The notes under the pieces were generated by a model that saw nothing but the letters and a program-made list of their open reading frames with translations, was not told the DNA's origin and searched no databases. A stretch of DNA of 64,000 nt from Myxococcota bacterium (GTDB taxonomy: Bacteria; Myxococcota_A; UBA796; UBA2385). The first letter of the stretch is position 1, and every line of letters starts with the position of its first letter. Shown piece by piece: positions 12,836 through 63,511 of the stretch. Location of the stretch: NCBI GenBank assembly GCA_044344255.1, contig JBIJDH010000024.1, forward strand, positions 32,001 to 96,000, written 5' to 3'. The position numbers and the translations under genes are program-made.

Positions 12836-13599
12836 GCGAGTCCCTGCGCCTGCCACGCCCGCCGCGAGACGCGCGCTCGCCTACGTTCCTGCGGCTCGTG
12901 CGCCCCTACGTGCGGCGGCGAATCTCGCGCGAGCTCGACGGGCTGTGGGTCTCCGGCCTGGAGCCGCTGCGCGCTCGGCTGGCCGAGGGGCCCCTGCTGC
13001 TCGCACCCACCCATGTCTCCTGGTGGGACGCCTTCCTGCTCGTCGCCCTCGACGAGGCCCTGGGCGCCGAGGGCTGGTGCCTGATGGACGCCGACAACCT
13101 CGCCCGGCTGCCCTTCTTCGGCTGGATCGGCGCCCTGCCCCTCGACCGCACCGGCGGCGCGCGCGCCCGACGGGGGCTCGAATTTGCCGCCGCCAAGCTG
13201 AGCGGCCCCGGCAAGGCCCTCTGGGTCTTCCCACAAGGTCGGCAGCGGCCGGCCCACCTCCGCCCGCTCGGCCTCGCGCCCGGGGTCCGCCTCTTGCAGC
13301 GGCTCACCCAGGCGCCGGTGGTGCCGATCAGCCTGAACTACCTCTTCCGCGAGGGCGAGCGGCCCGCCGCCTTCGCCGCGATCGGGCGCCCGGTGGAGGG
13401 GGACCTCCTCCCCGGCCTCGAGGCCTCCCTCGTCCAGGGCCTCGACGCCATCGATCGGTTCGTCGATCGGGGCCAGGGCGACTTCCGGCCCCTCGTCGCC
13501 CCGCACGGCGCCCGCAGCGAGGCGGGCCGCGGCGCGCGCCTGCTGCGGCAGCTCGGCGGCGCCACCCCCGAGCGCGACCCGGCCGGAGCGGGGCCATGA
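12832..13599 (+). CDS. PlsC-like acyltransferase, probable carotenoid-glycoside acyltransferase
   Basis: HVSWWD (HxxxxD), VFPQG; coupled to the glycosyltransferase. Confidence 0.8.
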   Translation: MSESLRLPRPPRDARSPTFLRLVRPYVRRRISRELDGLWVSGLEPLRARLAEGPLLLAPTHVSWWDAFLLVALDEALGAEGWCLMDADNLARLPFFGWIGALPLDRTGGARARRGLEFAAAKLSGPGKALWVFPQGRQRPAHLRPLGLAPGVRLLQRLTQAPVVPISLNYLFREGERPAAFAAIGRPVEGDLLPGLEASLVQGLDAIDRFVDRGQGDFRPLVAPHGARSEAGRGARLLRQLGGATPERDPAGAGP

Positions 13600-15125
13600 G
13601 CAAGGCTCGCGGCCCGCGGGTGATCGTGGTCGGCGCGGGCCTCGGGGGCCTCGCCGCGGCCATCGAGCTGGCTCACGCCGGCTGCCAGGTCCGCCTCCAA
13701 GAGGCGTTGGACCGCCCCGGCGGCAAGGCGGGGGTGGTGACCTGCGATGGGGTGGAGCTCGACAGCGGGCCGAGCCTGCTCACCTTACCCGACGTGGCCT
13801 TCGCCCTGCTCGACCGCCTCCCCGGCGGCCGCGACCGCCTCAAGCTCCGTCGGCCCTCTCCCGCCTTCCGCTACCTCTACGTGGATGGCGCCGTAGTCGA
13901 CGTCTTCGTCGAGCCGGAGGCCACCCTCGCGAGCGTGCGCGCCGCGCTCGGCGCCGAGGCCGCCGACGACCTCCAGGGCTTCCTCGACTACTCCCGGCAG
14001 ATCTGGGAGGCCGCCGCCCCGCCCTTCGTCTTCGGCCCGGCGCCGGAGTTGTCCAACCTCTTCGGCCTCGCCCAGGGCTGGTCGGCGCTCGGGGCGCTCC
14101 GCCACATCGACCCCCTCCGGACGATGAAGACGGCGATCCACGGGCGGATCCGCTCCCCGCACCTGCGGATGCTGCTCGAGCGTTACGCCACCTACAACGG
14201 CTCCGACGTGCGGGCCGCGCCCGCCACCCTCAACTGCATCGCCCACGTCGAGCTCGCCCTCGGCGGCTTCGGCGTGGAGGGCGGGATCGGCGCCCTGATC
14301 GAGGCCCTGACGGCGGTGGCCGTGGGCCTCGGGGTCGAGCTCCACCTCGGCGCGCCGGTCGCGGGCCTCCGCGTGGAGGGCGGCCGGGCGCGCGGGATCC
14401 GACTTCCGGACGGCGCGGAGATCGACGCCGACGCCGTCGTCGTCAACGCCGACGTGGCCTCGCTCTCCGAGGGTCCCGGGGGCCCCGAGGGCGGCCTCCT
14501 CCCCGCCGCCCATCGCGGGGCGGTGTCGGCCCCCGCCACCCCCTCGATGTCCGGCTGGACGGCCCTCTTCCGCGCCCGCCGCAGGCCCGACCGTGTCGCT
14601 CACACCGTCCTCTTCCCTGCTGACTATGGTCAGGAGATGGTCGACCTCTTCGACCGCGGCCGCCCGCCCGAGGCCCCGACCGTCTATGTCTGCGCCCAGG
14701 CGGTGGCCCACGGCCGGGCCGGCTGGGCCGAGGAGGAGCCCCTCTTCGTGATGATCAACGCCCCCGCCGAGCCGCGCCGGGGCCCCTCGCCCACCGACGG
14801 CGCGCGCCTCTGTGCACAGGCCCGCCAGCGCCTCGAGGCCGCGGGCCTGCTCCTCCCGAACGATCGGCTCCTCTGGGAGCGTGCCCCCGCCGGCCTCGCC
14901 GCCGCCTTCCCCGGCAGCCGCGGCGCCATCTACGGCGCCGCCTCCAACAGCCCCACCGCCGCCTTCGCCCGCCCGGCCAACCGCGTCCGCGCCCTGCCGG
15001 GCCTCTACCTCGCCTCCGGAGGCGCCCACCCCGGCGGCGGCATGCCCCTCGTGATGATGTCGGGTCGGCTCGCCGCCGCCGCCCTGCTCGAAGACCACCC
15101 CGCCGCCGCCTGGAGCCGCCCGTGA
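13596..15125 (+). CDS. Second CrtI-family FAD desaturase (CrtD-like)
   Basis: GAGLGGLA, DSGPSLLT, YATYNGS, GAIYG, HPGGGMP. Confidence 0.8.
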   Translation: MSKARGPRVIVVGAGLGGLAAAIELAHAGCQVRLQEALDRPGGKAGVVTCDGVELDSGPSLLTLPDVAFALLDRLPGGRDRLKLRRPSPAFRYLYVDGAVVDVFVEPEATLASVRAALGAEAADDLQGFLDYSRQIWEAAAPPFVFGPAPELSNLFGLAQGWSALGALRHIDPLRTMKTAIHGRIRSPHLRMLLERYATYNGSDVRAAPATLNCIAHVELALGGFGVEGGIGALIEALTAVAVGLGVELHLGAPVAGLRVEGGRARGIRLPDGAEIDADAVVVNADVASLSEGPGGPEGGLLPAAHRGAVSAPATPSMSGWTALFRARRRPDRVAHTVLFPADYGQEMVDLFDRGRPPEAPTVYVCAQAVAHGRAGWAEEEPLFVMINAPAEPRRGPSPTDGARLCAQARQRLEAAGLLLPNDRLLWERAPAGLAAAFPGSRGAIYGAASNSPTAAFARPANRVRALPGLYLASGGAHPGGGMPLVMMSGRLAAAALLEDHPAAAWSRP

Positions 15126-15892
15126 TCACCCTCAGCCTGTGGGCGGCGCTCACCCCCTCCGCGGCCGCCCTCCCGCCCGGCGGCGACCTCCTGCCCGGGA
15201 CCTATGGCCTCGAGCTCTCGCTCGCCTCCCTGGCCGACCTCCCCTTCCTCGGCTCGACGCCGGGGAGGAGCCTGTCCTGGAGCCTCACCACCGTCTCGGC
15301 CACCCCGGAGGGCCTCGTCCAGTCCCACAAGACCTGCGCCGTGCGCATGGAGGGCCGGACGGGGAATTCGAGCGTCCACGTGCCCGCCGCCTTCGTCGCC
15401 GCCCTGCCGGTCCGCACCTACCCGATAGACCTGAGCGCCGGCTATACCGCCGACCTCGGGCTCGACGCCGTCGGCTTCGACCCCGCCCGCGGCCCGCTGC
15501 CCACGCGGATCGACGAGCCCGCCGTGATCGACTGGGACCACGACGGACAGCCCGGCGCCACCGTCGAGCTCCGCATCCCCCTCCTCGGCACCTTTCAGCT
15601 CTATGTCGCCCAACAGGCCCACATCCGCCTGGAGGGAAAGACGAATGGGGCCGACGGGGCCAACGGAGGCGGCGGCGCGAGCGGCGGTGTCGCCTACGTG
15701 GCCTTCGACCAGCACACCCTCGGCGCCAGCAGCGCCTTCTTCGATCGCTCCCCCCGGGTCGCGCCGGTGCCGGAAGACAGCCGCTTCACGCTGATCCCCC
15801 TCCCCGCCGGCGCCCGCTGCGAGGCCGTGCGGACCGTCTTCTGTGACCGCGGCCTCTCCCGCAGCGCCTGCGCCGACCCCTCGAAGGAGTGA
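15122..15892 (+). CDS. Secreted hypothetical protein
   Basis: Signal-like N-terminus; DWDHDGQPG; GTGA overlap with the desaturase. Confidence 0.65.
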   Translation: MITLSLWAALTPSAAALPPGGDLLPGTYGLELSLASLADLPFLGSTPGRSLSWSLTTVSATPEGLVQSHKTCAVRMEGRTGNSSVHVPAAFVAALPVRTYPIDLSAGYTADLGLDAVGFDPARGPLPTRIDEPAVIDWDHDGQPGATVELRIPLLGTFQLYVAQQAHIRLEGKTNGADGANGGGGASGGVAYVAFDQHTLGASSAFFDRSPRVAPVPEDSRFTLIPLPAGARCEAVRTVFCDRGLSRSACADPSKE

Positions 15893-15962
15893 GCCCACCG
15901 GCGACGGCTCCCGGCCCTCCCCGGGGGCTTGAGTTACGCTGGAGGTCGCCGAGAGGTTTTGT

Positions 15963-16844
15963 ATGCTTTCCCTGCTGCTGATGCTCCTCGCCTGCCGCTC
16001 CAACGCACACCGGGGGATAGAGGCCAAGGGCGGAAGCGGCGAAGACAGCGGCGAGCCGACGGACAGCGATGAGCCCGGCGACAGCGATGAGCCCGGCGAC
16101 AGCGATGAGCCCAGCGACAGCGGAGAGGGGCTCCCAACCGGCTGGCCGGAGGAGCTGCCCGCCTGCGCCGATCTCGCGGACCCCTTCCCTCTCGCGGGGC
16201 TCGACGACATCGACGCGGCCTGGGCCGGTCGCCCCGAGTCGGCGGTGGTGGGCGCCGCGATGGCGCTCGTACGAGGCGCCTCCGAGGCCGGCGGCTGTCC
16301 GAGCCTGGTGGACGATCCCTGTGGCGCGGGCACCGTCTTTACGGGCGGCTGCGAGGCCGGGGATGTGACGGCCACGGGCTCTGGTTGGAGCGACGCCTGC
16401 GACGATGGCGGAACCTGGACCTGGTCCGACTTCTCCGTCGCCGATCCGGTGGCAGGTTGGTCCTTCGCGGCGGAGGGGATGGCCTCCTTCGTTATCTCGG
16501 GCGACCAGCTCGAGGACTGGGAGATGGAGGCGACCCTGCACGGTGTCTGCGCCGACGGTGGCTGCGACGGCGTCTATCATTGGAGCGGCACCCACTTCAT
16601 CGGGGGAATGGTGGAGGAGCGACACCAGCGGGCCACCATCGAAGCAGAGGGAGACAGCCGCCAGGGGGAGCTCTGTATCGATGAGTCCCGGGTCCCCGAG
16701 CCCACCTGTGCGGAGGAGGATGTGGGCTGGACCATCCTCCAGGGAGACCGGGTCGTCGTCGCCCTCTGGGACGGAGACATCGCCTGCGATGGCTGCGCGC
16801 GGCTCTTCATCGAGGGGGAGGAGGTGGGCGGGTGGTGTCCCTGA
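15963..16844 (+). CDS. Cys-rich lipoprotein with DSDEPG repeats
   Basis: Lipobox LLAC; 18-bp repeats near 16042-16120; many Cys. Confidence 0.7.
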   Translation: MLSLLLMLLACRSNAHRGIEAKGGSGEDSGEPTDSDEPGDSDEPGDSDEPSDSGEGLPTGWPEELPACADLADPFPLAGLDDIDAAWAGRPESAVVGAAMALVRGASEAGGCPSLVDDPCGAGTVFTGGCEAGDVTATGSGWSDACDDGGTWTWSDFSVADPVAGWSFAAEGMASFVISGDQLEDWEMEATLHGVCADGGCDGVYHWSGTHFIGGMVEERHQRATIEAEGDSRQGELCIDESRVPEPTCAEEDVGWTILQGDRVVVALWDGDIACDGCARLFIEGEEVGGWCP

Positions 16845-47530: not shown

Positions 47531-48244
47531 TCAAGGGTGGCTCGCTGGCTCCTCGGCAAGGCGGAGGGCCTGGAGCACCTGCAGCCCGGCTCGCTCCGCC
47601 CGCGCAAGGTCGAGCGGAGTACCCGGGCACCCCGATGCACCCGCCACCTCCGCGGTGCGGACCATCGCGCCCAAGCCTCGTCGCCGACACTCCCGCACAA
47701 AGAGTGGGTTGACACCCTCGAGACCGTCCAACAGAGCCTCCTGGTGCGCACGGTCCTCCTGCAAGCGCTCAGCGGAGGCGTCTCGTGCCCAGGAGTCGCG
47801 GACGATCAGCGGCGCATGACCGAGCTCGAACAACGCAGCGACAAAGGTCGCGCAGGTCAGTCCGGACCCCGACCCCGAGGAAGTGAGCGCACCGTCTCGA
47901 CGGAAGGCCTGCTCCATATTCAAGCCAAACGGAAGCATCGCCTCACGCTCCCAGCGATCTCGGACGATGTCTGCGGCAAGCAACACACCTTCGAGGATCT
48001 CGTGCGGCAGGGCTGGCTTCACGAGGCGGAGCGTACGGTCCGGATCGAAGACGCGTTGCTCCAACGGCTCGAATGGCTGCTGGCTGAGGTAGAGAGCGTC
48101 ACTCCCGGCTTCACCGGCTACGACAACCCCAACGTGGGAGGCGTCCGGGAGGATCGCCACCGCGACCAGGAGCCCATCCTGGAGCGCGGAGTGAGCCGGG
48201 AGGAGGCAGGGAGGGTCGTCGGCCTCCGCGGCTGTGACGCTCAA
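47531..48244 (-). CDS. Hypothetical protein, possible permuted papain/NlpC-P60-like enzyme
   Basis: TTG start overlaps the upstream stop; SHVGVV precedes GLTCATFV. Confidence 0.55.
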   Translation of the reverse strand: MSVTAAEADDPPCLLPAHSALQDGLLVAVAILPDASHVGVVVAGEAGSDALYLSQQPFEPLEQRVFDPDRTLRLVKPALPHEILEGVLLAADIVRDRWEREAMLPFGLNMEQAFRRDGALTSSGSGSGLTCATFVAALFELGHAPLIVRDSWARDASAERLQEDRAHQEALLDGLEGVNPLFVRECRRRGLGAMVRTAEVAGASGCPGTPLDLARAERAGLQVLQALRLAEEPASHP

Positions 48245-49665
48245 GACAGGCGCTCCAGCCAACGCTCGACCTCTGCGCTCAGAGGGCCCTCGCGCTCCAA
48301 ATCGCTCCGGAACCAAGACACGAGCTCGGCGCGCCCCTCGACCGGCCAGGGTGACCGAACGGTGGACAACAGCACGGCCCGAACCAACGGCCGCCGGAGC
48401 GCCCGCGCGGACACCTCTCGCACCAAGGCCGCGGCGAGCTCGCGGTCGTACGCGTACTGCATGTCGTCCGCGAGCTGAGCGAGGACCACCGCACCCTCAC
48501 GTGGGCGCCCCCTCTCGTCGGCCGCGAGGGCTCGAGACACGGCTGCCGAGACGAGCGAGCTCCGCCGCATCGCCTCCCCCCGCGCTGCGGCGAGCACCAG
48601 GGGATCGACCGCCCCATCCTCCCCGGGGAGCGCTGGCAGCGGAGCGCAGCCCGGCGAAGGGGAATCCACCGGCGGGAGCTCCACATCGCACGCAGCATAC
48701 TCCTTGGTGTCCACCAGGTGCCGATGGGTCGCCCAACGCGGGAGGTAGCCCTGATTGACGAGCTGATATTGGGCGACCCCAACGGTCGCCTTGAAGACAT
48801 CCACGACGCGCCGGACACGCTCCGCGCAGGCTGCGGAGCCGCCCGCAGGCCCCCCATCCGGCGGGCCGAACAGTTCAATCAGGCCCTGCAACGGAACGAG
48901 CAATTCGGCAGCGAACCCCTTTGCGCGCGACTCCGCGAGGTCCTTGGTCTCCGACCCGTCCTCCTTGTCTTCGGTGTCCAGGGTGAGGACAGTGCCACCC
49001 GCAGCCGGCGAATCATAGAGAATGTGGCAAATCTCGTGGGCGATGTCCACACGCGCTGACCTGGGCTCGATTGGCCGCGCCTCCGCGATCACCGCAGCCG
49101 CAGCCGAGCGATCGGCAGCCATCACCGCCACCGCGCGCAAGCCCGAGGATCGAAGACGACGATGGAGGACCGGTATCCCCAGCTCCGCGGCGAGCGAGAC
49201 CAGGTCGGGTACCGGCTTGCTCCCCAAGCCCCGCTCGTGCCGCAGCCGACGGGCGAGGCGATAGCCCTGTTGAGCTGCCGCCGTGGGGTAGGTGGCCGAG
49301 ATGACAACCGGGAGAGGGGGGGGCAACCGCGCGTCCGGGGAGCAAGCGCGCGCGGCCCAGTCGCGACCGCAGCGCAGCGCCTCCAGGAGCGTCGAAACAT
49401 CCGCGCCGTCCAGCGAGCCGAAGGGACCTCGAAATGTGAAGAACCTCGCGATGGACGGATCATCATCGGCCGGGGTGAGCACATCAAAGGCCCACGCGCC
49501 CCGGTGCAAACCCAGCGCCGCCGTCACCGCTCGCACGACCTCGGGCTCCCGCTCTGGCGCGCTCTCCGCACGGAGGAGTTCCGCCACCGAGACCTCCGCC
49601 CCGGCCGCGAGCTCCGCAGCGGACAAGCCCGCGAGGTGCCGCAGCGCGGAGAGATCGCGAAACAT
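48241..49665 (-). CDS. HTH plus ImmA/IrrE-family metallopeptidase with an extra C-terminal helical domain
   Basis: N-terminal XRE-like HTH; AHEICH; ESRAKGFAAELLVP; AGGAGG RBS. Confidence 0.85.
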   Translation of the reverse strand: MFRDLSALRHLAGLSAAELAAGAEVSVAELLRAESAPEREPEVVRAVTAALGLHRGAWAFDVLTPADDDPSIARFFTFRGPFGSLDGADVSTLLEALRCGRDWAARACSPDARLPPPLPVVISATYPTAAAQQGYRLARRLRHERGLGSKPVPDLVSLAAELGIPVLHRRLRSSGLRAVAVMAADRSAAAAVIAEARPIEPRSARVDIAHEICHILYDSPAAGGTVLTLDTEDKEDGSETKDLAESRAKGFAAELLVPLQGLIELFGPPDGGPAGGSAACAERVRRVVDVFKATVGVAQYQLVNQGYLPRWATHRHLVDTKEYAACDVELPPVDSPSPGCAPLPALPGEDGAVDPLVLAAARGEAMRRSSLVSAAVSRALAADERGRPREGAVVLAQLADDMQYAYDRELAAALVREVSARALRRPLVRAVLLSTVRSPWPVEGRAELVSWFRSDLEREGPLSAEVERWLERLS

Positions 49666-49742: not shown

Positions 49743-50888
49743 TCAATCGGCGAGGGCGGGGCGCTTCGCGGTGCTCTTCGTCTCGAGGAAGCGCTTCGCC
49801 TTCTTCTGGCTCGGGCCGTAGACGTCGCCGATGTTGTTGTCGGTGACACGGTTGCCGTGGCTGTCCGCTTCGCCGGCCGTCGGGTTCCAGAACTCGGAGA
49901 CCAGCGTGCGCAGCCCCGCGTTCCGCGACCGATTGTCGGTGATCTGATTGTCATTCGAGGCGTTGGACACGCGCACCGAGTCGCCGGAGATGTCCTTGAA
50001 GCGGTTTCCGGAGACGGTGTTGTTCGAGCTGTGGTCGCGCAGATAGACCCCGTGGATCAGGCGGGGCCCCGTGCTCGTGCCCTTGACGTCTCCGTTCTCG
50101 AGCCCGTCGAAGACGTTGTCGGTGATCTGCGAGCCCTGGAGCCCGCGGGCGAGCACGCCGCCCACGCCGTAGCGCTGCTTGGACCAGTCGGCGGCGCCCG
50201 GCTTGGAGTGGAGGCTCCCGAGGTCTTCGAAGCGGTTGTGGTCAATCACGGCGCCGCTGAGGAAGGCCGACACGCCGCCGTCCCACTTGTGGTCTGAGCC
50301 GGACTGCGTCTGGGGGGAGATCTCGACGCCGCCCGACTCATAGCCGCGCACCGTGACGCCGCTCATCGTGAAATTGGCCGCCGCGGGGGCCGCCTCGGTG
50401 GTGCCGGCCCCGACGTTGGGCCGATAGGACAGGAAGAAGCCGGGCGTGGGCCGGCCACCCTTCAGGCCCGACACGACGGCGCCGTTGCCCTCGATCACGA
50501 GGCGCTGATCGGGGGAGTAGGTGGTCCACAGCGTCTGCTGCCGCTCATGGATGATGGAGTCGGGCGTCAGGCTCACCTTCAAGACCGGCTCGTGGGGCAC
50601 GGTGCTCGTGGGGTCCTGCTTCTGGGCCTCCACCCAGTCGTGCACCGCCTGGAGGGTCGCGAAGCGCTGGCCCAGCAGCTCGAAGGAGCCGGCGACGCGC
50701 CCCTTGTCGCCGTCGGCGGCGCGGGTGGAGCGCTCGGAGGCCTGGTCGCTGGCGAGCTGGTCCTGGGCGAGGCTGTTGCTCTGGTCGGCGCTGTCGGCGC
50801 CCCCGGCCGACCGCGCGCTGCTGGCGGCCGACTTCGCCGATGTGTCCTTCGATACGCTGCGGCTGCTGCGCTGCTGCTGACCAGACAT
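49743..50888 (-). CDS. Right-handed parallel beta-helix protein with a low-complexity N-terminus
   Basis: Repeats such as ITDNVF, VSGNRF, ITDNRS; HGVYL; no signal peptide. Confidence 0.7.
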   Translation of the reverse strand: MSGQQQRSSRSVSKDTSAKSAASSARSAGGADSADQSNSLAQDQLASDQASERSTRAADGDKGRVAGSFELLGQRFATLQAVHDWVEAQKQDPTSTVPHEPVLKVSLTPDSIIHERQQTLWTTYSPDQRLVIEGNGAVVSGLKGGRPTPGFFLSYRPNVGAGTTEAAPAAANFTMSGVTVRGYESGGVEISPQTQSGSDHKWDGGVSAFLSGAVIDHNRFEDLGSLHSKPGAADWSKQRYGVGGVLARGLQGSQITDNVFDGLENGDVKGTSTGPRLIHGVYLRDHSSNNTVSGNRFKDISGDSVRVSNASNDNQITDNRSRNAGLRTLVSEFWNPTAGEADSHGNRVTDNNIGDVYGPSQKKAKRFLETKSTAKRPALAD

Positions 50889-50911
50889 GCTCACCTCACG
50901 GAGGGCCGAGC

Positions 50912-56856: not shown

Positions 56857-58137
56857 GTGTCCCCCCTCCGCTCCGCCCTCCCCTCTGCCCTGGCCGCCCT
56901 CCGCCGCCCCGGGCCCCGTCGCCTGCTCATCGCCGTCTTCACCGCGATGTACCTTGTGTTCGGGCTATACCGCTCGGGGGCCACCGTCTTCGCCGGCGGC
57001 GGGGGCCGCGACTACGCGACCTACCACTACGCCGTCCAGGAGGCCGTCGCCGGGGGCGATCCCTACGACACCGCGGCGCTCGGCCTGCGGAGCGCCGCCG
57101 AGGGCACGCGCAAGTCTGTCCACCCCTTCTTCTACCCGCCCCCCTTCCTCTTCTCGATGCTCTGGGCGGCCCCCCTCTCGCTCATGACGGCCTATCGGGT
57201 CTTCTGGGCGGTCAATCAGCTCCTCCTCGTGGGCACGCTCTTCGCCCTCCGGCGCTGGTTCGGGCCCTCGCTGCTCCTGCTCGCCTTCGTCGCCGCCACC
57301 TTCAGCCCGATCCCCGACAACGCCAAGATGGGGCAGGCCAACCTGCTCGTGCTGCTGCTCGCGGTGGCCGGGCTCGCGCGCGGCAGCGGCGGCCTCGTGG
57401 GGGCGGCGGCGATGGCCAAGATGTCGCCGGCCCTCTACCTCGTGGGCTGGCTCTCTCGCCGAGAGTGGCGGCCGGTGCTCACCGCAGGGGTCACGGCGAT
57501 CGGGCTCTCCCTCCTCGCCCTGCCGCTCGTGCCGCTCGAGACCCAGCGGATGTTCTACCTCGACATCCTGCCGGGCTTCTCCTCGGGCGACTACCACGGC
57601 TTGAAGGTGAAGATCACCCTGCCCGCCAACCACTCGATCCCCGATCTCTGGAACCAGCTCTGGCCGGGGCCGAGCGGGCACGCCCTCTCCCCCGCCGCCC
57701 AGCGCGCCTCCTCGCTCTCAAGCCTCGGCCTGCTCGGCCTGCTCGGCCTCGTGGGCGCGCGCACCCGCGGGGACGCCGACCCGCTCCGCCTCGCCAACCT
57801 GATGGGCGCGCTCACCGTGCTCATGCTGATCACGCCGGTCTACACCTACGAGCACCACCTCACGCTGCTGATCCTGCCCGTCGTCGCCCTCGGCGCCGCC
57901 ATCGAGCGGGGGCGCCTCGGCCGGGGCTGGGTCGTGCTGGTCCTCGTGGCCTACTTCTTCGTCGCCTGGCCCCTCGCTTGGCTCCGCGGCCTCCAAGACC
58001 TCGTGCCCCTCCTCGACTGGCCCCTCCAGGAGAGCAAGTTCCTGGGGGCGCTCCTGCTCGGCCTCGCGAACGCGCGGGTGGCCTGGAGCCCGGCCCCGCC
58101 CGCCGCCGCCGATCAGCCCGCCCGCGCCGAGAGCTGA
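56857..58137 (+). CDS. Family 87 (DUF2029) membrane glycosyltransferase
   Basis: RDYATY, FFYPP, GQAN, AKMSP, YEHH; multiple TM segments. Confidence 0.8.
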   Translation: MSPLRSALPSALAALRRPGPRRLLIAVFTAMYLVFGLYRSGATVFAGGGGRDYATYHYAVQEAVAGGDPYDTAALGLRSAAEGTRKSVHPFFYPPPFLFSMLWAAPLSLMTAYRVFWAVNQLLLVGTLFALRRWFGPSLLLLAFVAATFSPIPDNAKMGQANLLVLLLAVAGLARGSGGLVGAAAMAKMSPALYLVGWLSRREWRPVLTAGVTAIGLSLLALPLVPLETQRMFYLDILPGFSSGDYHGLKVKITLPANHSIPDLWNQLWPGPSGHALSPAAQRASSLSSLGLLGLLGLVGARTRGDADPLRLANLMGALTVLMLITPVYTYEHHLTLLILPVVALGAAIERGRLGRGWVVLVLVAYFFVAWPLAWLRGLQDLVPLLDWPLQESKFLGALLLGLANARVAWSPAPPAAADQPARAES

Positions 58138-58211
58138 TCGAGCAGGCCGACGAGGATGTGGGCCTGGTACCAGGCGTCGTAGTCGGCGCGGTGCTTCTGA
58201 CCGAGGTCTTC
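58065..58211 (+). repeat. 147-bp direct repeat, left copy
   Basis: Matches 62828-62974 with one mismatch found (58130 a vs 62893 c). Confidence 0.95.
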
Positions 58212-58251
58212 AGACGGTCAGCGCCTTACAGGAGGCCCGCTGGGAGAGGCC
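58113..58251 (-). pseudogene. Remnant copy of the exonuclease 3' end with an internal deletion
   Basis: 58113-58211 corresponds to 62876-62974; 58211-58251 matches 63195-63235 at 37/41. Confidence 0.8.
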
Positions 58252-58579
58252 ATGACCATGAGCACGGGCATCAACACTGGGTCGCCGGATTCCAGCGGGA
58301 AGAGGCGTTTCGGTGGACGTCCGCGGGGGAGGTCGGCAAGACCAGCTCAACCGACGGATGCCTGAGCCTTGACTCCCGACCTCCACCCCGACTGGACATC
58401 GCGGGCGGCATCACGGTGTCACCGAGAAGAGGTCGAAGAGGTCGATGGTGCCCCAGTCGGAGATGCCGGGCAGAATTGGCATGAGGATTTCGCCGAGGTG
58501 GGTGAAGTTGGTGCCCTGAAGGTCGCTGTTGAAGAAGGCGATCATGGCGGCGTTCTGCCAGGGCGCGAGGCCGGGAGCC

Positions 58580-59071
58580 TCAGCCGCTTGTCGGGTAGTC
58601 GCACTCAGCATACGCTCCCGGCTCGGAGCACTCCTCCGGGCTTCGCCTCGTGAGATCGCACCACTCCTCCACGCCCATGTCGCCGCTGAAGACCCTGTCC
58701 AGCGCCGTCAGGTAGCGGCAGTCCCTTTCGCGAGTACACATCGCCACCGCACAGGGGTCATAATCGTCGCACTCGGCAGTAGGATCGGAGCGGATTTCCT
58801 CCCAGGCGACAATTCCATTCGCCACGCAGGTGTCGTAGTAATCTCTAAATTCCTCGAGAGAATACCCATCGTCACACAGCCGAGAGCTCGCACAGTCCAC
58901 GGCCGCATCCACCTCATCGTACCGATAGATGTCGAAGGTGTCGCACTCATCTTCGCCCGGGTAACCAGCCGCGCAGTCCTCATACGCCTCTTCGGGTCTG
59001 TCTCCTTTGTCCGAGCATGCGCAGAGCAGTAGGATGGCGAGCAACCCCAGGCGCTGGACGACGACCCACAT
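58580..59071 (-). CDS. Cys-rich acidic lipoprotein (163 aa)
   Basis: MWVVVQRLGLLAILLLCAC lipobox; 14 Cys; lower GC. Confidence 0.65.
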   Translation of the reverse strand: MWVVVQRLGLLAILLLCACSDKGDRPEEAYEDCAAGYPGEDECDTFDIYRYDEVDAAVDCASSRLCDDGYSLEEFRDYYDTCVANGIVAWEEIRSDPTAECDDYDPCAVAMCTRERDCRYLTALDRVFSGDMGVEEWCDLTRRSPEECSEPGAYAECDYPTSG

Positions 59072-59099
59072 GTTACTGCTGAAGGCGAATGCGGTTGTG

Positions 59100-59341
59100 G
59101 TGCTTGGAGGGGCAGCCGACTTCCTCGCGAGGTCTTTCATGGTGCGGTAACCGCTGGTAAGATAGGCGGTTCCGAGCTCCACCTTCACGCCATCGACGAT
59201 GTGGGGGTCGCTCTGCCCGCCGACATCGCCGGAGGCCTCGAAGAGATCGACCTTGAGGTGGGAGAGGGGGCGGAGCTGCGCCGCGAGGGAGACACCGGCC
59301 GGTCCGGCGCCGATGATGGCGATGCGGAGGTTCTGGGTCAT
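59100..59341 (-). pseudogene. N-terminal fragment of an FAD-dependent oxidoreductase
   Basis: IAIIGAGPAG...FEAS..VGG...VELGT; only about 80 codons before unrelated sequence. Confidence 0.7.
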
Positions 59342-59516
59342 GCGGTCGCTTAACCCGGCGCATTCAGATGCACCGATGCGCCTCTCGAGTCTCTTTGACT
59401 TTTCGGTCTTCGGCTCTCCCGCCCAGGCGGGCGTCCTCACGGAGCTCGAAGGGCCGGAGCACAAGGTCGATGAGGGCCAGGTGATCGACGTGGAGGAGCC
59501 GCCGCAGCGCTGAGCC

Positions 59517-61382
59517 TCAGGCGGGGAGGGTGGGAGCGACGAGGGCGGCGAGGTCGGGGCGGCCGCGTGTGAGGGCAGCCTCGTGCCAAAGAGAGCGTTC
59601 GGCGGCAGGGAGGGTAGCGAGCACCTCAGTCGACCATAAGTCGTGGCCGTCTATGATCAGTCGCCACCCGGTGCCCGGCTTCAAATACGCATCGACGGTG
59701 TTCGCCAAGCTGGAGCTATGCGAGATGAGCGTTCGATAGGCCGCCGCCGCGGCTGCACAATTTTCACGACTGAGAAAGGTAATTTCGAAAATCTTAAATA
59801 GAAGCGATAGCACCAGCAGTTTGCGGATTACATCTGTGCCGACCCCGGGTAGGGTCTTGATCAGATTGCTTGCGATTGATTGTTGTTGAGGGGATGTCGT
59901 CCAGAAGATCGATCCCAGGAAGTTGGCGAGGACCATGCCGATGTCGAAGCGCTGGATGAGCTCGTCGTACGAGCTGTTCGCACGGACCCACTCGCCGAAC
60001 AAGATGAGTGCGAATACCTGACAAGCTGCAGTTGTAACACACGGCTGGCGCAAATATAGTTCGTTTGCCAGCTCAGCGGCTCGAGTAGGGCTGTCCTCCA
60101 TTTCGTTCGCGATTGCTTTGAACAGGTGGCTATCCACCAGAATCTCGTCTCCTTCCCACATCAAGGCTTCATGAAACCAAGATTGGTGACCTTCGGGGGT
60201 TCCTTGGCGAGCCAGAAGCTCTGACCGGGTGTGCCAGAAGCGCAAGAACCGAATGAATACCTTTGGCGCCTGGTCCGGACGTTTCATGGCTCGTGCGATA
60301 CGCCAGAGCGGATCGCGCAGCTCGTAGAAGCTCTCTCGCCCTACGCTGTGGCTCTGCACGAGGCCATCGCGCCTAAGGAAGCGGAGCTGACCGGAGACGG
60401 TGCCCTGCGTCGAGAAGGTGGCATCGACGAGCTCACTCACGGTCAGCGGTCGCCAGCTCTCGCTCAGGCGCTCAAGCAGGGCCTGCTGGCCGGGGGCGCG
60501 GGCGCGGATCTGCTCCTGGAAGTAGGGGGTGAGCTCATCCCCGAGCTGGTAGAAGGCTGTCTCCAGCTCGTCGAGGCTCTCCCTCGTCAGGTAGGGGAAG
60601 AGCAGGGCCATCCCACGGGGAGAGCCGCCGATCAGGTGGTGAATTGCTCGCACACGGGCGAGGCCAAGCGGGCTCTGGAGGCGCTCGGCGAGGCCGGGGT
60701 CTGGCCGGTCCTCTGCCAGGGTGAGGAGCATGTCTCGACACCCCTCCGGGCTGAGCGGCCCGACGGGCTCCTCGATCCACATGCGGTAGAAGGGCCGGTC
60801 CCGATTGTGGAAGTCGTCGCCGGTGGCCTGGGCGGTGGCGAGCACGCTCCAGCGCTGTTCGGTGACGATGCCGCGCAGGCGCCACTGCTCCTCAGTGCTC
60901 ATCGCCGAGAGGATGCGGTCGAGGTTCTCGAGGCCGATGAGGAAGGGCCTCGCCTGGAGACGCCCCTCGATGAGGCGGAGAGCCCGCTCGACGGCCTCGG
61001 CGCGGTCACTGCCGCGAAGGAGTGCCACCTGACTCGCCGCGGTGGGCAGCCCCTCCACCTCGGGTAGGCGGGAGAGCAGGCGGGCGAGGAGGTCGAGCAG
61101 GCTGCCCACATGCTCCTCCTCATCGAGCGCGGCGACCACCGGGGCCTGGGGCAATGCCGCCGCCCGGATGCGCGCCAGGAGCACCGCGAAGAGGTGGCTC
61201 TTCCCGCTGCCGCGGGCTCCAACGAGGACGACGTGCCGGGCCCCCCCTTCGGCGAGGGTGCCGACCAGGCCCTCCACGACGCCGTCGACCAGCGACCCGC
61301 GCTCGACCAGGCGGCGCTCCAGGAGCTCGGTGGGCAACAGATGGGGGGAGAAGCGGGAAAACTGGGGGCGGGTCAGAGACAT
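59517..61382 (-). CDS. P-loop ATPase plus winged HTH plus a divergent helical C-terminus
   Basis: GARGSGKS; LIGLENLD; GGSPR; HTH LTVSEL...TVSGQLRFL...GRESFYEL. Confidence 0.85.
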   Translation of the reverse strand: MSLTRPQFSRFSPHLLPTELLERRLVERGSLVDGVVEGLVGTLAEGGARHVVLVGARGSGKSHLFAVLLARIRAAALPQAPVVAALDEEEHVGSLLDLLARLLSRLPEVEGLPTAASQVALLRGSDRAEAVERALRLIEGRLQARPFLIGLENLDRILSAMSTEEQWRLRGIVTEQRWSVLATAQATGDDFHNRDRPFYRMWIEEPVGPLSPEGCRDMLLTLAEDRPDPGLAERLQSPLGLARVRAIHHLIGGSPRGMALLFPYLTRESLDELETAFYQLGDELTPYFQEQIRARAPGQQALLERLSESWRPLTVSELVDATFSTQGTVSGQLRFLRRDGLVQSHSVGRESFYELRDPLWRIARAMKRPDQAPKVFIRFLRFWHTRSELLARQGTPEGHQSWFHEALMWEGDEILVDSHLFKAIANEMEDSPTRAAELANELYLRQPCVTTAACQVFALILFGEWVRANSSYDELIQRFDIGMVLANFLGSIFWTTSPQQQSIASNLIKTLPGVGTDVIRKLLVLSLLFKIFEITFLSRENCAAAAAAYRTLISHSSSLANTVDAYLKPGTGWRLIIDGHDLWSTEVLATLPAAERSLWHEAALTRGRPDLAALVAPTLPA

Positions 61383-62545
61383 CGGTGGAGCTTCCAGAAG
61401 CGACGAAGGCAGTCGAGGCGGAAGAGCCAGCGCTCATTGCGCCGATCGAGGTACTGGTCGCGCCGCAGCCACTGGAGGACCTCGACGAGCCGGTCTCCAG
61501 GGAACAACCGACGAAGCTCGGTGATGGACTGGCCTGTCGGATGAAGGCAGAGGTGGTCGAGCAGATGCAACGCGAGGTCATGATCCTCGGCGCTCAGCGT
61601 GCGCTTCATCCGCTGGACGTAGTGCTCGAGCTCCAGCGGATCCTGATCATTGTCGAGGAGGGCCTCGAGTGCCTGATCGGCGGCGTGGCGGGTGTAGCGC
61701 CGCTCCATGCGCACCCGCTCGGCGATGTGCTGCAGCACGAAGGGGTGCCCTTCGGAGATACGCGAGAGGTGCTGCGCCAGATCGGCCGCGTTGGCGGACT
61801 CCTTCTCGAAGCTCGCCACGAGGCGCCCGGCCAGCTCCAGCGCTCCGCCGGGCTCGAGGACCGGGAGGACCTCCCGGGCCATCTTGTTGTCGGGGTCATT
61901 CGTGTACCCGCGGGCCTGCAGCCCGCGGATGATCTCGTGCAGCCCGATCGAGCCGGTGTAGACGAGGCGCAGCCGGGGCCAGCGCTGGGCGTCGCGCAGG
62001 AAGTCGAGGAGGGCGGTGACCTCGCGGTCCCCCCGCACGGTGACGAGGCCGTCGAGGAAGATGGTGAGCTCATCCCAGACGAGGACGACGATCCGCTCTT
62101 TTTCGTCAGCCCACTTCTGTAGCCCCTCGAAGGCCTTGTCGAGGACGGGCTGCCACTCCGCCCCCGGCAGGCGGAGCGCCAGCTTCACCCCCTTGAGCTC
62201 CACGCCCCCGGCGAGGCCCTCGACGTACCGGGCGAAGGGGAGGTAGCGCCGGAGGAAGCCACCCGTCAGCCCCTCGATCTGCTCCAACACGGCCTGCACG
62301 AAGTCCGGCAGGCCGCGCGGCACCTTCTCCAAGCTCGCGTAGCGGAGCGCGAAGTGGGCAGGCTGGTGCGCCGGATCGGCCATGCGGCGCCAGAGGCTCG
62401 TCTTGCCCATCCGGCGCGGGGCGGTGAGCACGAGGGAGCGCGTCTCCAGGATCTCCCGGAAGCGGCGAATCAGCTCATCCCGGCCGACGACCTGCTCCGG
62501 GCTGAGATCGCCGCCGGGGTTCGGGGTCAACGCGGTGGTGGACAT
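61373..62545 (-). CDS. P-loop ATPase (PRRxGKTS type)
   Basis: VVGRD, APRRMGKTS, VLVWDE, YTGSIG, EGHPF; 3' end overlaps the next start. Confidence 0.88.
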   Translation of the reverse strand: MSTTALTPNPGGDLSPEQVVGRDELIRRFREILETRSLVLTAPRRMGKTSLWRRMADPAHQPAHFALRYASLEKVPRGLPDFVQAVLEQIEGLTGGFLRRYLPFARYVEGLAGGVELKGVKLALRLPGAEWQPVLDKAFEGLQKWADEKERIVVLVWDELTIFLDGLVTVRGDREVTALLDFLRDAQRWPRLRLVYTGSIGLHEIIRGLQARGYTNDPDNKMAREVLPVLEPGGALELAGRLVASFEKESANAADLAQHLSRISEGHPFVLQHIAERVRMERRYTRHAADQALEALLDNDQDPLELEHYVQRMKRTLSAEDHDLALHLLDHLCLHPTGQSITELRRLFPGDRLVEVLQWLRRDQYLDRRNERWLFRLDCLRRFWKLHRCL

Positions 62546-62592
62546 CGTCGTTCCAAGGGGGGACCGGGAAGGCCCTCGACCCATGCTGGAAT

Positions 62593-62621
62593 CAACATAT
62601 GTCAAAAACAACATATGTCAA
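62593..62621 (-). promoter_or_regulatory. Two copies of TTGACATATGTTG at 16-bp period upstream of the ATPase pair
   Basis: Plus strand caacatatgtcaa at 62593 and 62609; contains TTGACA and the palindrome ACATATGT. Confidence 0.65.
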
Positions 62622-62699
62622 CATCGACATGCATATCCCCCACCCCGCCGCAGCAGGATGCACCGAGGTGCTTCGCCGATCTCCTCGCATTCCCCGCCG

Positions 62700-62824
62700 G
62701 GGCCGTCGTGCATGGCCTCCAGTCGGGCGTCCTGTAGCCGTCGAAGCAGGCGCTGCGCGGCGTTGATGGCCGGGTCGAGGGCCTCCACCCGGTCGAGGCA
62801 GGCGTCGATCTCCAGGGGGTCCAC
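62700..62824 (-). pseudogene. Possible amidase N-terminal fragment
   Basis: IDACLDRVEALDPAINA resembles amidase-signature family N-termini; the rest is absent. Confidence 0.4.
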
Positions 62825-62827
62825 CCC

Positions 62828-62974
62828 CGCGAACGCGCGGGTGGCCTGGAGCCCGGCCCCGCCCGCCGCCGCCGATCAGCCCGCCCGCGCCGCGAGCTGA
62901 TCGAGCAGGCCGACGAGGATGTGGGCCTGGTACCAGGCGTCGTAGTCGGCGCGGTGCTTCTGACCGAGGTCTTC
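62828..62974 (+). repeat. 147-bp direct repeat, right copy
   Basis: Matches 58065-58211. Confidence 0.95.
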
Positions 62975-63511
62975 GGCGGGGAGCCGCAGCCGCTCGGCCA
63001 GCACCTCCTTGTTGCTGTCGAACCAGTGCACCCCGAGGGCGCCGGTCGCCATCGCCTTCGTGCAGAGCGCCTTGTAGCCGAAGGGGTTCGGGAGCTCCTC
63101 GGCGGCGTAGGCGTAGCTCACGAAGCTCCAGTCAAAGGGCGCGTTGTGGCCCACGAAGGAGGGCTTCGTGCGGGGCTTCGTCCGTGCCCGCACCCAGGCG
63201 GTCAGCGCCTCGCAGAAGGCCCGCTGGGAGAGGCCCTCGGCAGCCAGCTTGCCCTGGTCGAGGCCGTGGATCGCGGCGGCGCGGGCGTCGAAGCGGGGCG
63301 CCCCGGGACGGAGCTCGGCGTAGAAGGGGTTGCCCTCGATGACGAGGTGGCCCTGCTCGTCGGGGGAGACCACCACCGCGCCGAGCGACACCATGTCGTA
63401 GAGCCCTGGAACGGGGCCGTTGCACTCGATGTCGATGCAGAAGTACGTTGTGCGGGACTCCCGATGGCGGGAGGAGGGGGCGGCGGGGTGGGAGACAGGC
63501 AGGCCGGTCAT
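62876..63511 (-). CDS. DEDDh 3'-5' exonuclease
   Basis: IDIECNG, GHNAPFD, HRADYDA; start uncertain. Confidence 0.85.
   Translation of the reverse strand: MTGLPVSHPAAPSSRHRESRTTYFCIDIECNGPVPGLYDMVSLGAVVVSPDEQGHLVIEGNPFYAELRPGAPRFDARAAAIHGLDQGKLAAEGLSQRAFCEALTAWVRARTKPRTKPSFVGHNAPFDWSFVSYAYAAEELPNPFGYKALCTKAMATGALGVHWFDSNKEVLAERLRLPAEDLGQKHRADYDAWYQAHILVGLLDQLAARAG

Follow-up and report, generated by a model that had tools for sequence, protein, structure and literature searches.

Two overlapping genes and a short repeated DNA element in a 64,000-nucleotide stretch of a Myxococcota genome (contig JBIJDH010000024.1, positions 32,001 to 96,000 of the forward strand; hereafter the window) make up a widespread three-part cassette that apparently has no name in the libraries or literature searched. 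The genes, here called A and B, encode paralogues predicted to be ATPases of the STAND/ORC-Cdc6-like type (signal transduction ATPases with numerous domains; origin recognition complex), and the element is an operator-like array upstream of A. We are confident of the general architecture, a heteromer that regulates its own expression. More tentatively, the cassette may be a sensor-helper pair of STAND ATPases that regulates itself, has spread horizontally and acts in conflict with invaders. The array, which was missed in an earlier interpretation of the window made from its letters only (the sequence-only reading), is the strongest functional clue.

Gene A (61373..62545, minus strand) is an intact open reading frame (ORF) of 390 amino acids and gene B (59517..61382, minus strand) one of 621 amino acids, and they overlap by 10 nucleotides, as the sequence-only reading had described. 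From the N- to the C-terminus, A has an NPGG N-terminus, an RRxGKT Walker A motif (APRRMGKTS, residues 42-50), an hhhWDE Walker B motif (VWDE, residues 156-159), a TGSIGLH sensor-1 region, a helical lid and a winged-helix domain; no sensor domain and no effector domain was found in it. Position 62545 is its likely start, because an alternative in-frame ATG at 62614, which would add 23 amino acids, falls within the array and because homologues begin at the NPGG motif. B carries GARGSGKS at residues 55-62 and LENLD at residues 151-155, followed by a winged helix-turn-helix (HTH) domain (60303..60494, minus strand; approximately residues 297-360) that is probably the operator-binding domain, and by a variable helical tail (59517..60302, minus strand). 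The HTH is of the ArsR/MarR-like class, with Pfam HTH_5 as the sole match above its cut-off (residues 302-344, E = 2.8e-8) and NF033788 below its own (E = 5.7e-11). The tail is all-helical in the predicted model and has a low GC content at third codon positions (GC3); arrays of tetratricopeptide repeats (TPRs) occupy it in most homologues, and the window's own tail has no TPR match. The earlier assignment of the winged HTH and helical tail to B is correct, but a winged helix is not confined to B, as A also ends in one according to its structure model and fold match.

No model of the Pfam NTPase families, NCBIfam or PADLOC matches A or B at its cut-off, apart from the ArsR-like HTH of B, and a sequence search of solved structures returned nothing for A and only ArsR matches for B. 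AlphaFold models (mean pLDDT 88.8 for A and 83.6 for B) place both proteins among the STAND/ORC-Cdc6-like ATPases, nearest to archaeal PAB2304 and SSO1545. PAB2304 (2qen) is the best fold match of A (Z = 25.7, root-mean-square deviation 4.1, 324 residues aligned) and also of B (Z = 22.1, deviation 3.6, 317 aligned), SSO1545 (2fna) matches with Z = 23.9 for A and 20.4 for B, and the next matches after these archaeal ATPases are NB-ARC modules of plant nucleotide-binding leucine-rich repeat receptors (NLRs) and Cdc6/Orc1.

A and B are homologous to each other throughout the core (hhalign probability 97.9, E = 3.6e-13) and share an invariant arginine at an equivalent position (R184 in A, R170 in B). 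Their catalytic motifs are asymmetric. The DE of Walker B is present in all 169 A rows with residues in the alignment, whereas the corresponding position of B, in the 162 rows displayed of 165, is EN in 148 and DE in none; the Walker A signature GK[TS] is kept in 163/163 B rows with residues. The earlier claim that each gene has its own Walker A and B motifs is thus accurate for both Walker A motifs and for VWDE of A, but LENLD of B is not a canonical AAA+ Walker B. This pattern suggests a catalytic role for A and, for B, nucleotide binding with poor hydrolysis, although STAND proteins can use alternative acidic residues.

The pair is near-obligate. A search for loci with the single protein found no relative, but a GTDB genome scan with an alignment confirmed at least 264, from which 80 loci were kept. 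B is directly downstream of A in 75 of the 80, and the remaining five end at a contig edge. When B was used to find loci, A or a piece of it was upstream in 33 of 36; two of the other three begin at a contig edge, and the third (L186) has ~980 nucleotides without an A match. Within the host order, 16 of 61 genomes (including the host genome itself, G000) match at E < 1e-9, a patchy distribution, and such loci fetched from the other genomes of the order contain B in 17 of 18 cases, the last being cut by an edge; five weak P-loop matches (L113-L117) were excluded from the pair count of these relatives. The family is represented by 1,128 clusters (50% identity) that match the A profile at E <= 1e-30, and its loci occur in Cyanobacteria, Planctomycetota, Pseudomonadota, Myxococcota, Acidobacteriota, Actinomycetota and other phyla. 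A natural A-B fusion is represented by one sequence, P0134, which may be a product of misassembly. G000 contains a second, diverged A/B pair with its own 16-bp array on contig C18 (L001, 8298-11059), whose A paralogue has an in-frame internal deletion of ~110 residues.

A predicted complex is consistent with a heteromer. The model of A with residues 1-395 of B reaches an ipSAE of 0.70, compared with 0.00 for the best control, and the mark used for this test was reached by 116/157 solved complexes and 2/215 mismatched pairs. At least 92% of contacts recur between separate runs, and the partners have pLDDT values of at least 84. In the modelled interface, the NPGG segment and lid of A face helix 1, helix 163-175 and the 192-203 region of B, and the interface residues in NPGG of A and in the F198/Q174 region of B are conserved. 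The packing appears to be the usual head-to-tail AAA+ arrangement. Both the locus counts and the modelled heterodimer agree with the earlier proposal of a coupled two-NTPase unit.

The array in the window (62575..62638, no strand assigned) has a 16-bp period and is the best such site in the 8.2-Mb genome. Its two strong units, at 62591-62622, both read TTGACATATGTTG on the minus strand, and the two units that flank them are degenerate. A sigma-70-type promoter-like site (TTGACA, 16 nucleotides, TATGTT) lies inside it (62594..62621, minus strand), with 10/12 consensus matches, the best of 4 sites where 0.5 are expected in shuffles; it is a consensus match and not a mapped promoter. Across loci, two to four tandem 16-bp palindromes of the form TTRACGTACGTYAA are located 30-110 nucleotides before the start of A. 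After removal of 22 near-duplicates from the 80 loci, arrays of at least 10 bits were present in 53 of the 58 loci left for the neighbour and motif counts, as against 0/433 upstream regions of neighbouring genes (leave-one-out), and the window's array scores 32.0 bits with a matrix trained without the window. Since the motif was first noticed in those loci, we conducted an independent search of the genome collection with the DNA pattern alone. It found 56 loci (~9 expected by chance, by our own calculation with even base composition), and 42 of them are at most 400 nucleotides upstream of an A homologue, or 36/50 after removal of six loci already seen. The 14 others include loci with A remnants downstream (L154 and L166), at a contig edge (L174), behind a B gene (L159), and one with upstream genes in common with a relative that has the pair (L169).

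The array probably serves the cassette itself. Diverged subfamilies have other arrays, for example TGCTGTACAGCA, together with other residues in the recognition helix of B: this helix and the GRES.Y wing are kept in the main clade and altered in the subfamilies with another array, while the surface of A's winged helix is freely variable. B is therefore the likely reader of the array. The only other pair-linked site in a scan of the whole of G000 is the promoter of the C18 paralogue, and the remaining matches are weak and resemble AT-rich background; a regulon in this genome was rejected by that scan. In view of this lack of other targets in the genome, the array is most likely an autoregulatory operator. 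An Rfam scan of 58000-63000 gave no match, and the array was therefore treated as a DNA site. We also considered arrays flanking both ends of the pair as a rule, and rejected this, as arrays of at least 10 bits are found behind B in 0/60 cases versus 4/207 control windows.

Some arrays are not followed by an intact pair. Array locus L152 is the same site as pair-bearing L081 with both genes cleanly missing, and comparison of L152 (1152-1164) with L081 (9949-13836) places the break midway through the third array unit. Other arrays without the pair precede a DS-8-like phosphoesterase gene (L127, 2513-4543) and an NTPase-TPR gene (L163, 2513-5022); such positions may be cargo slots in which one conflict gene replaces another while the promoter is kept. 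Six intergenic arrays of two to three units with no pair nearby (L125, L133, L138, L141, L145 and L177) fit none of these descriptions; L138 and L163 belong to one genome. Orphan arrays as regulon sites were rejected because none of 10 genomes with such arrays has a main-clade A; a distant A is found in 3/10, and these assemblies may be incomplete. The only possible cis target other than the pair's own operon is in L078, where a second array (13171-13236) is ~90 nucleotides before a SIR2-NB-ARC-TPR gene (13323-16232). This gene follows the pair at a distance of 0.8 kb, a Phd/ParE pair lying in the interval, and the record is labelled Phenylobacterium, yet the stretch is AT-rich. A site in L057 is inside a coding region and was rejected as a target.

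The tail is the variable part of the cassette. B ranges in total length from ~420 to ~1,260 amino acids (420-1262) across homologues, and TPR Pfam matches occur in 18/30 B homologues. In the window, GC3 of B is 0.55-0.68 at residues 361-560, compared with 0.82-0.93 in the core, the best match of the tail among 204 other B proteins has an E-value of only 2.7e-4, and 6/7 differences between this B and a close allele, P0227, are at residues 513-591. These features suggest that the tail was swapped in. No Atlas match of the tail exceeds 0.79 and no TM value exceeds 0.44.

The genes also differ in how often they are broken. Among 148 distinct loci, both genes are intact in 112, A is broken and B intact in 8 (9 with L178), the reverse holds for L064 only, and both are broken in 1; the asymmetry (8 or 9 versus 1) has p = 0.039 or 0.021. 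In a related strain (sequencing run X17; P0003), a 134-nucleotide deletion corresponding to window positions 61597-61730 truncates A, while the full-length B allele P0227 exists on contigs of equal length. In P0152 and P0221, the A-family ATPase is C-terminal to a SAV_2336 N-terminal domain (445.7 bits in P0152, cut-off 200), which we take to be the von Willebrand factor A (vWA) component of MoxR-vWA conflict systems. A word-based search, which is weak evidence, found no longer fused forms of A, and 2 were among the best 150 of a profile search. In part of a published account of MoxR-vWA systems (PMC7159879), their effector position is described as often occupied by STAND NTPases.

In the window, the cassette is within a 4.6-kb insert bounded by 150-nucleotide direct repeats that are 99% identical. 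The repeat covers the overlapping 3' ends of two genes of the host flanks, a GT87 glycosyltransferase gene (56857..58137, plus strand; Pfam GT87 E = 1.1e-20) and an Rv2179c-like 3'-5' exonuclease gene (62876..63511, minus strand; matches in 28/31 genomes searched). The left copy (58062..58211, plus strand) holds the true GT87 3' end and a copy of the exonuclease 3' end, and the right copy (62825..62974, plus strand) a copy of the GT87 3' end and the true exonuclease 3' end. A passenger ORF of 294 amino acids (58580..59464, minus strand) is chimeric: an N-terminal fragment of an FAD oxidoreductase, 76% identical in amino acids to a whole gene on contig C70, is in frame with a Cys-rich lipoprotein-like ORF. 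The latter (58580-59071, minus strand; 163 amino acids, Cys- and acid-rich) probably starts at 59071, with a lipobox read from the sequence, has a GC content below that of the host and matches no family besides the fused oxidoreductase fragment. A 139-nucleotide piece of mosaic debris (62705..62843, no strand assigned) shares 86% identity with a stretch of a small C18 gene, and a 41-nucleotide piece (58211..58251, plus strand) is 90% identical to the interior of the exonuclease gene (63195-63235). In all, fragments in the insert are 82-90% identical to genes elsewhere in the same genome, and no integrase is within it; it looks like a homology-driven capture rather than a self-mobile island. 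The pair had been described as the only large intact cargo of a repeat-bounded island; the direct repeats are real, but the chimeric ORF, the host-like fragments and the array are also inside.

An empty site was not seen, in that 15 of 24 read joints from four sequencing runs gave no exact 4,763-nucleotide skip, and two short-sided joints near the insert limits were uninformative. The lower coverage of the ATPase-bearing contig in run X17 (20, compared with 32-38) is no more than a hint. GT87 is within 1.5 kb of the exonuclease in none of 11 same-family genomes. RNA run X19 covers parts of A and the beginning of B at a depth of 2-3, which does not show transcription. Elsewhere in the window, a 474-amino-acid XRE-like/IrrE protein (Peptidase_M78, E = 1.4e-5) followed by a 261-amino-acid ORF without a Pfam match (47531-49665, minus strand) is a possible pair resembling toxin-antitoxin (TA) or abortive infection (Abi) genes, and the IrrE-like gene adjoins one for a 383-amino-acid protein with a right-handed beta-helix region (49743-50894, minus strand; E = 6.6e-6). 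In Microcoleus loci L012, L015, L018, L022, L032 and L033, a gene for a putative Uma2 endonuclease is just downstream of the pair; Uma2 genes are also found far from the pair in other cyanobacteria.

We propose the following mechanism, for which pairing, asymmetry, the array and tail variation come from sequences and models and A-B binding from the modelled complex, whereas operator binding, ligand, toxicity and protection are steps that we infer. At rest, B, probably with A, would sit on the array, keeping expression low and A restrained. A foreign ligand, most likely a phage protein, would bind the tail of B and cause nucleotide exchange and oligomerization of A and B, which would lift repression and amplify the response. 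As no enzymatic effector is found, the output is proposed to be the A-containing ATPase oligomer itself, as an ORC/TnsC-like DNA clamp or through growth arrest; this step is the weakest link of the mechanism. The swapped tail, the patchy spread, the more frequent breakage of A than of B, the SAV_2336 fusions and the arrays before the L078, L127 and L163 genes are conflict-like signs. It is possible, but doubtful, that the cassette is a bacterial counterpart of the sensor-helper NLR pairs of plants and animals that works without an enzymatic effector, in which the sensor doubles as operon repressor and a DNA-clamped ORC-like oligomer is the weapon.

Several observations weigh against a role in conflict. 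The association with defence islands that the sequence-only reading expected, set beforehand as a test that could refute it, did not appear: TA- or defence-like proteins are 11/119 of the near neighbours (within 3.5 kb) and 14/150 of the far ones (Fisher p = 1.0) in loci L005-L053, by our own classification of Pfam matches (thresholds 1e-5 and 1e-8) in script-called genes, with 150 of 254 far neighbours scanned. In the 58 loci, 213 proteins are encoded no more than 3.5 kb from the pair, and most of them are housekeeping proteins; no third gene recurs across phyla, and a recognizable anti-phage gene is that close in only a few of these loci, such as the restriction-modification genes of L058 and the SIR2-STAND gene of L078. 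Neither A nor B nor any of 30 B homologues has an effector domain that Pfam detects, which agrees with the earlier remark that a nuclease or TIR effector is lacking. The viral contigs, plasmids and phages searched gave no match to the pair, and its sites are stable within some genera (Microcoleus, Brasilonema and Competibacter). The difference between broken A and broken B genes is weak (p 0.02-0.04), comes from non-independent loci and is biased by the loci found with B toward intact B, and the fusions are known from one (P0134) and two (P0152 and P0221) sequences. Finally, the score of the modelled complex may reflect likeness to solved AAA+ oligomers such as Cdc6/Orc1 and NLRs.

Mostly housekeeping neighbourhoods would also fit a non-immune signalling regulator of the MalT/IniR/PH0952 kind that is split into two subunits, with a tail that senses a metabolite or host protein, and that regulates itself and reaches other targets by way of weaker sites or contacts with proteins. 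The ArsR-like HTH of B and the conserved operator point in this direction, and bacterial STANDs, in the portions of Kaur 2020 that bear on this, have been studied mainly as transcription regulators. On the other hand, the 8.2-Mb genome has no second strong site except the promoter of the paralogue, and no target or neighbour gene is conserved across phyla. Patchiness, a swapped tail and frequent loss would moreover be unusual for a useful metabolic regulator, and we consider this explanation unlikely, if worth serious attention. A further candidate is a selfish addiction module of the toxin-antitoxin kind, in which A is a toxic ATPase, B the antitoxin and repressor, and the array the site of stoichiometry-dependent autoregulation, with no sensing of invaders and only incidental benefit to the host. 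A two-gene autoregulated operon, inserted between unrelated housekeeping genes, whose A is lost more often than B (8-9 versus 1) and which can be cleanly lost with the array left behind (L152 versus L081), would fit such a module. It would not need a large hypervariable TPR tail, however. The full nucleotide-binding STAND module that B retains (GK[TS] in 163/163), the intact A and broken B of L064 and the lack of the pair on the plasmids searched also count against it. This account is rather improbable as well.

Clean loss with a break inside an array unit (L152) is also compatible with a minimal ORC/Cdc6-like initiator or a mobility module, for which the array would be the origin or end sequence where the A/B oligomer assembles to replicate or mobilize the cassette. 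The fold is near that of the Cdc6/Orc1 heterodimer on origin DNA (2qby, Z = 17) and of TnsC/MuB, repeats lie beside the ATPase genes, the insert in the window is repeat-bounded, and the L159 array is just behind the B gene. However, the general absence of arrays behind B in comparison with control windows, and the position of the array, which overlaps the promoter just before the start codon, argue against this idea. The 213 near neighbours include no helicase, integrase or transposase, and the plasmids, phages and viral contigs searched have no copy of the module; it is very improbable. We retain the sensor-helper pair as our tentative explanation. With an exact operator, an interface and a catalytic asymmetry to work from, all predicted, this complete and compact three-part unit of 3 kb lends itself to direct tests of each step. 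If immune, the cassette would illustrate an NLR-like receptor that works with no nuclease, NADase or protease and would serve as a minimal model for sensor-helper pairs; otherwise it would provide a first function for the long-orphan PAB2304/SSO1545-type ATPases.

The closest structural relatives, PAB2304 (2qen) and SSO1545 (2fna), combine, like A and B, an AAA+ core, a lid and a winged helix in ~350-390 amino acids. However, they are only 14-16% identical to A and B and are single proteins without an assigned function, whereas here there are paired paralogues with a sensor tail and an operator array. The Cdc6/Orc1 heterodimer on origin repeats (2qby) likewise brings together two AAA+-winged-helix paralogues and neighbouring repeated DNA boxes, but A and B are bacterial, patchily distributed and equipped with a sensor tail, their boxes overlap the promoter, and there is no sign of replication. 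Among sequence families, AAA_35 (PF14516) reaches 13.4 bits with A, below its cut-off of 27 and through the P-loop only, and some Atlas neighbours carry it; this family is presumably tied to Npun2340/2341 (MNS clade). Pfam nSTAND5 (PF25199) gives 12.5 bits with B (cut-off 34), and nSTAND6 (PF25201) has no match in the window at E <= 1. PF01637 (ATPase_2), which we take to be the MJ/PH/SSO-type ATPases of the MNS clade, is not among the matches listed for A and B at E <= 0.1 and is present in distant A homologues.

The earlier statement that the pair matches no named system agrees with searches of PADLOC, NCBIfam and Pfam; PADLOC-DB 2.0 (2023, without Avs6-24 models) has no match to A and only short HTH/P-loop matches to B. 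We found no description of the pair or motif in the literature searched, although Leipe 2004, the tables of Lee 2026 and current DefenseFinder models may cover the family. Like the nSTAND2 operons outlined in parts of Kaur et al. 2021 (PMC8195603), A and B form a mobile two-gene operon with a STAND module in each gene, a predicted hetero-oligomer and one partner that is probably less active. In the inactive nSTAND2 partner, as those parts describe it, the NTP-binding motifs are eroded, and the protein carries a fused GT4 or HEPN effector. B instead keeps its Walker A (GK[TS] in 163/163 rows, without DE) and has a winged helix and TPR tail; no GT4 or HEPN fusion is present in 30 B homologues or the window, and no nSTAND2 Pfam match is listed.

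As in Avs/AVAST and other defence STANDs covered in portions of Lee et al. 2026 (PMC13581612), B has, behind its STAND module, a variable TPR-like tail with which a phage protein could be recognized. The A/B pair differs in having no N-terminal effector (the NTPase starts at approximately residue 20 in both), in being split into two genes with predicted built-in operator binding, and in having neither a PADLOC match nor an enrichment of defence neighbours. STANDs are sorted into 589 clades in the same portions, and the A/B family may already be one of the numbered clades. Their criterion for a defence-associated clade is an enrichment of defence genes within 5 kb or effector domains in half or more of the members; our Pfam proxy, which differs from their DefenseFinder test, shows no near/far gradient. 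CARD-NLR/LypABC systems, as far as the sections of PMC13236601 on them go, also have two interacting ATPase-domain proteins, one degenerate and one with TPRs, and LypABC is transcriptionally repressed, as its overproduction is toxic. The CARD and trypsin peptidase domains of LypABC and its separate repressor, CdxB, have no counterpart here: no match to CARD-like or trypsin domains was found in either protein, nor is there room for them. Also, the degenerate partner here is the TPR-bearing one, unlike in the LypABC described there. BREX, in the relevant part of PMC12839542, has active and inactive STAND/ORC-Cdc6 modules in larger operons, unlike the two-gene A/B unit.

The A/B cassette lacks features that define Avs, nSTAND2 and CARD-NLR/LypABC. 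STAND transcription regulators combine, as B does in one chain, a STAND module, a TPR sensor and an HTH, and 6mfv and 8bob are among the fold matches. We presume that MalT, PH0952 (PDB 6mfv) and IniR have this role. In B, however, the winged helix of the STAND itself serves as the HTH, the system requires a second ATPase, and the only strong target found is the cassette's own promoter. The MalT-like feature of an HTH with a conserved cognate site is represented by the HTH_5 match and the co-varying array, to which B would bind, and the MalT-like feature of targets beyond the own operon was not found in the scan of G000 besides the paralogue's promoter. In its working, the A/B cassette resembles both a STAND sensor and a STAND transcription regulator.

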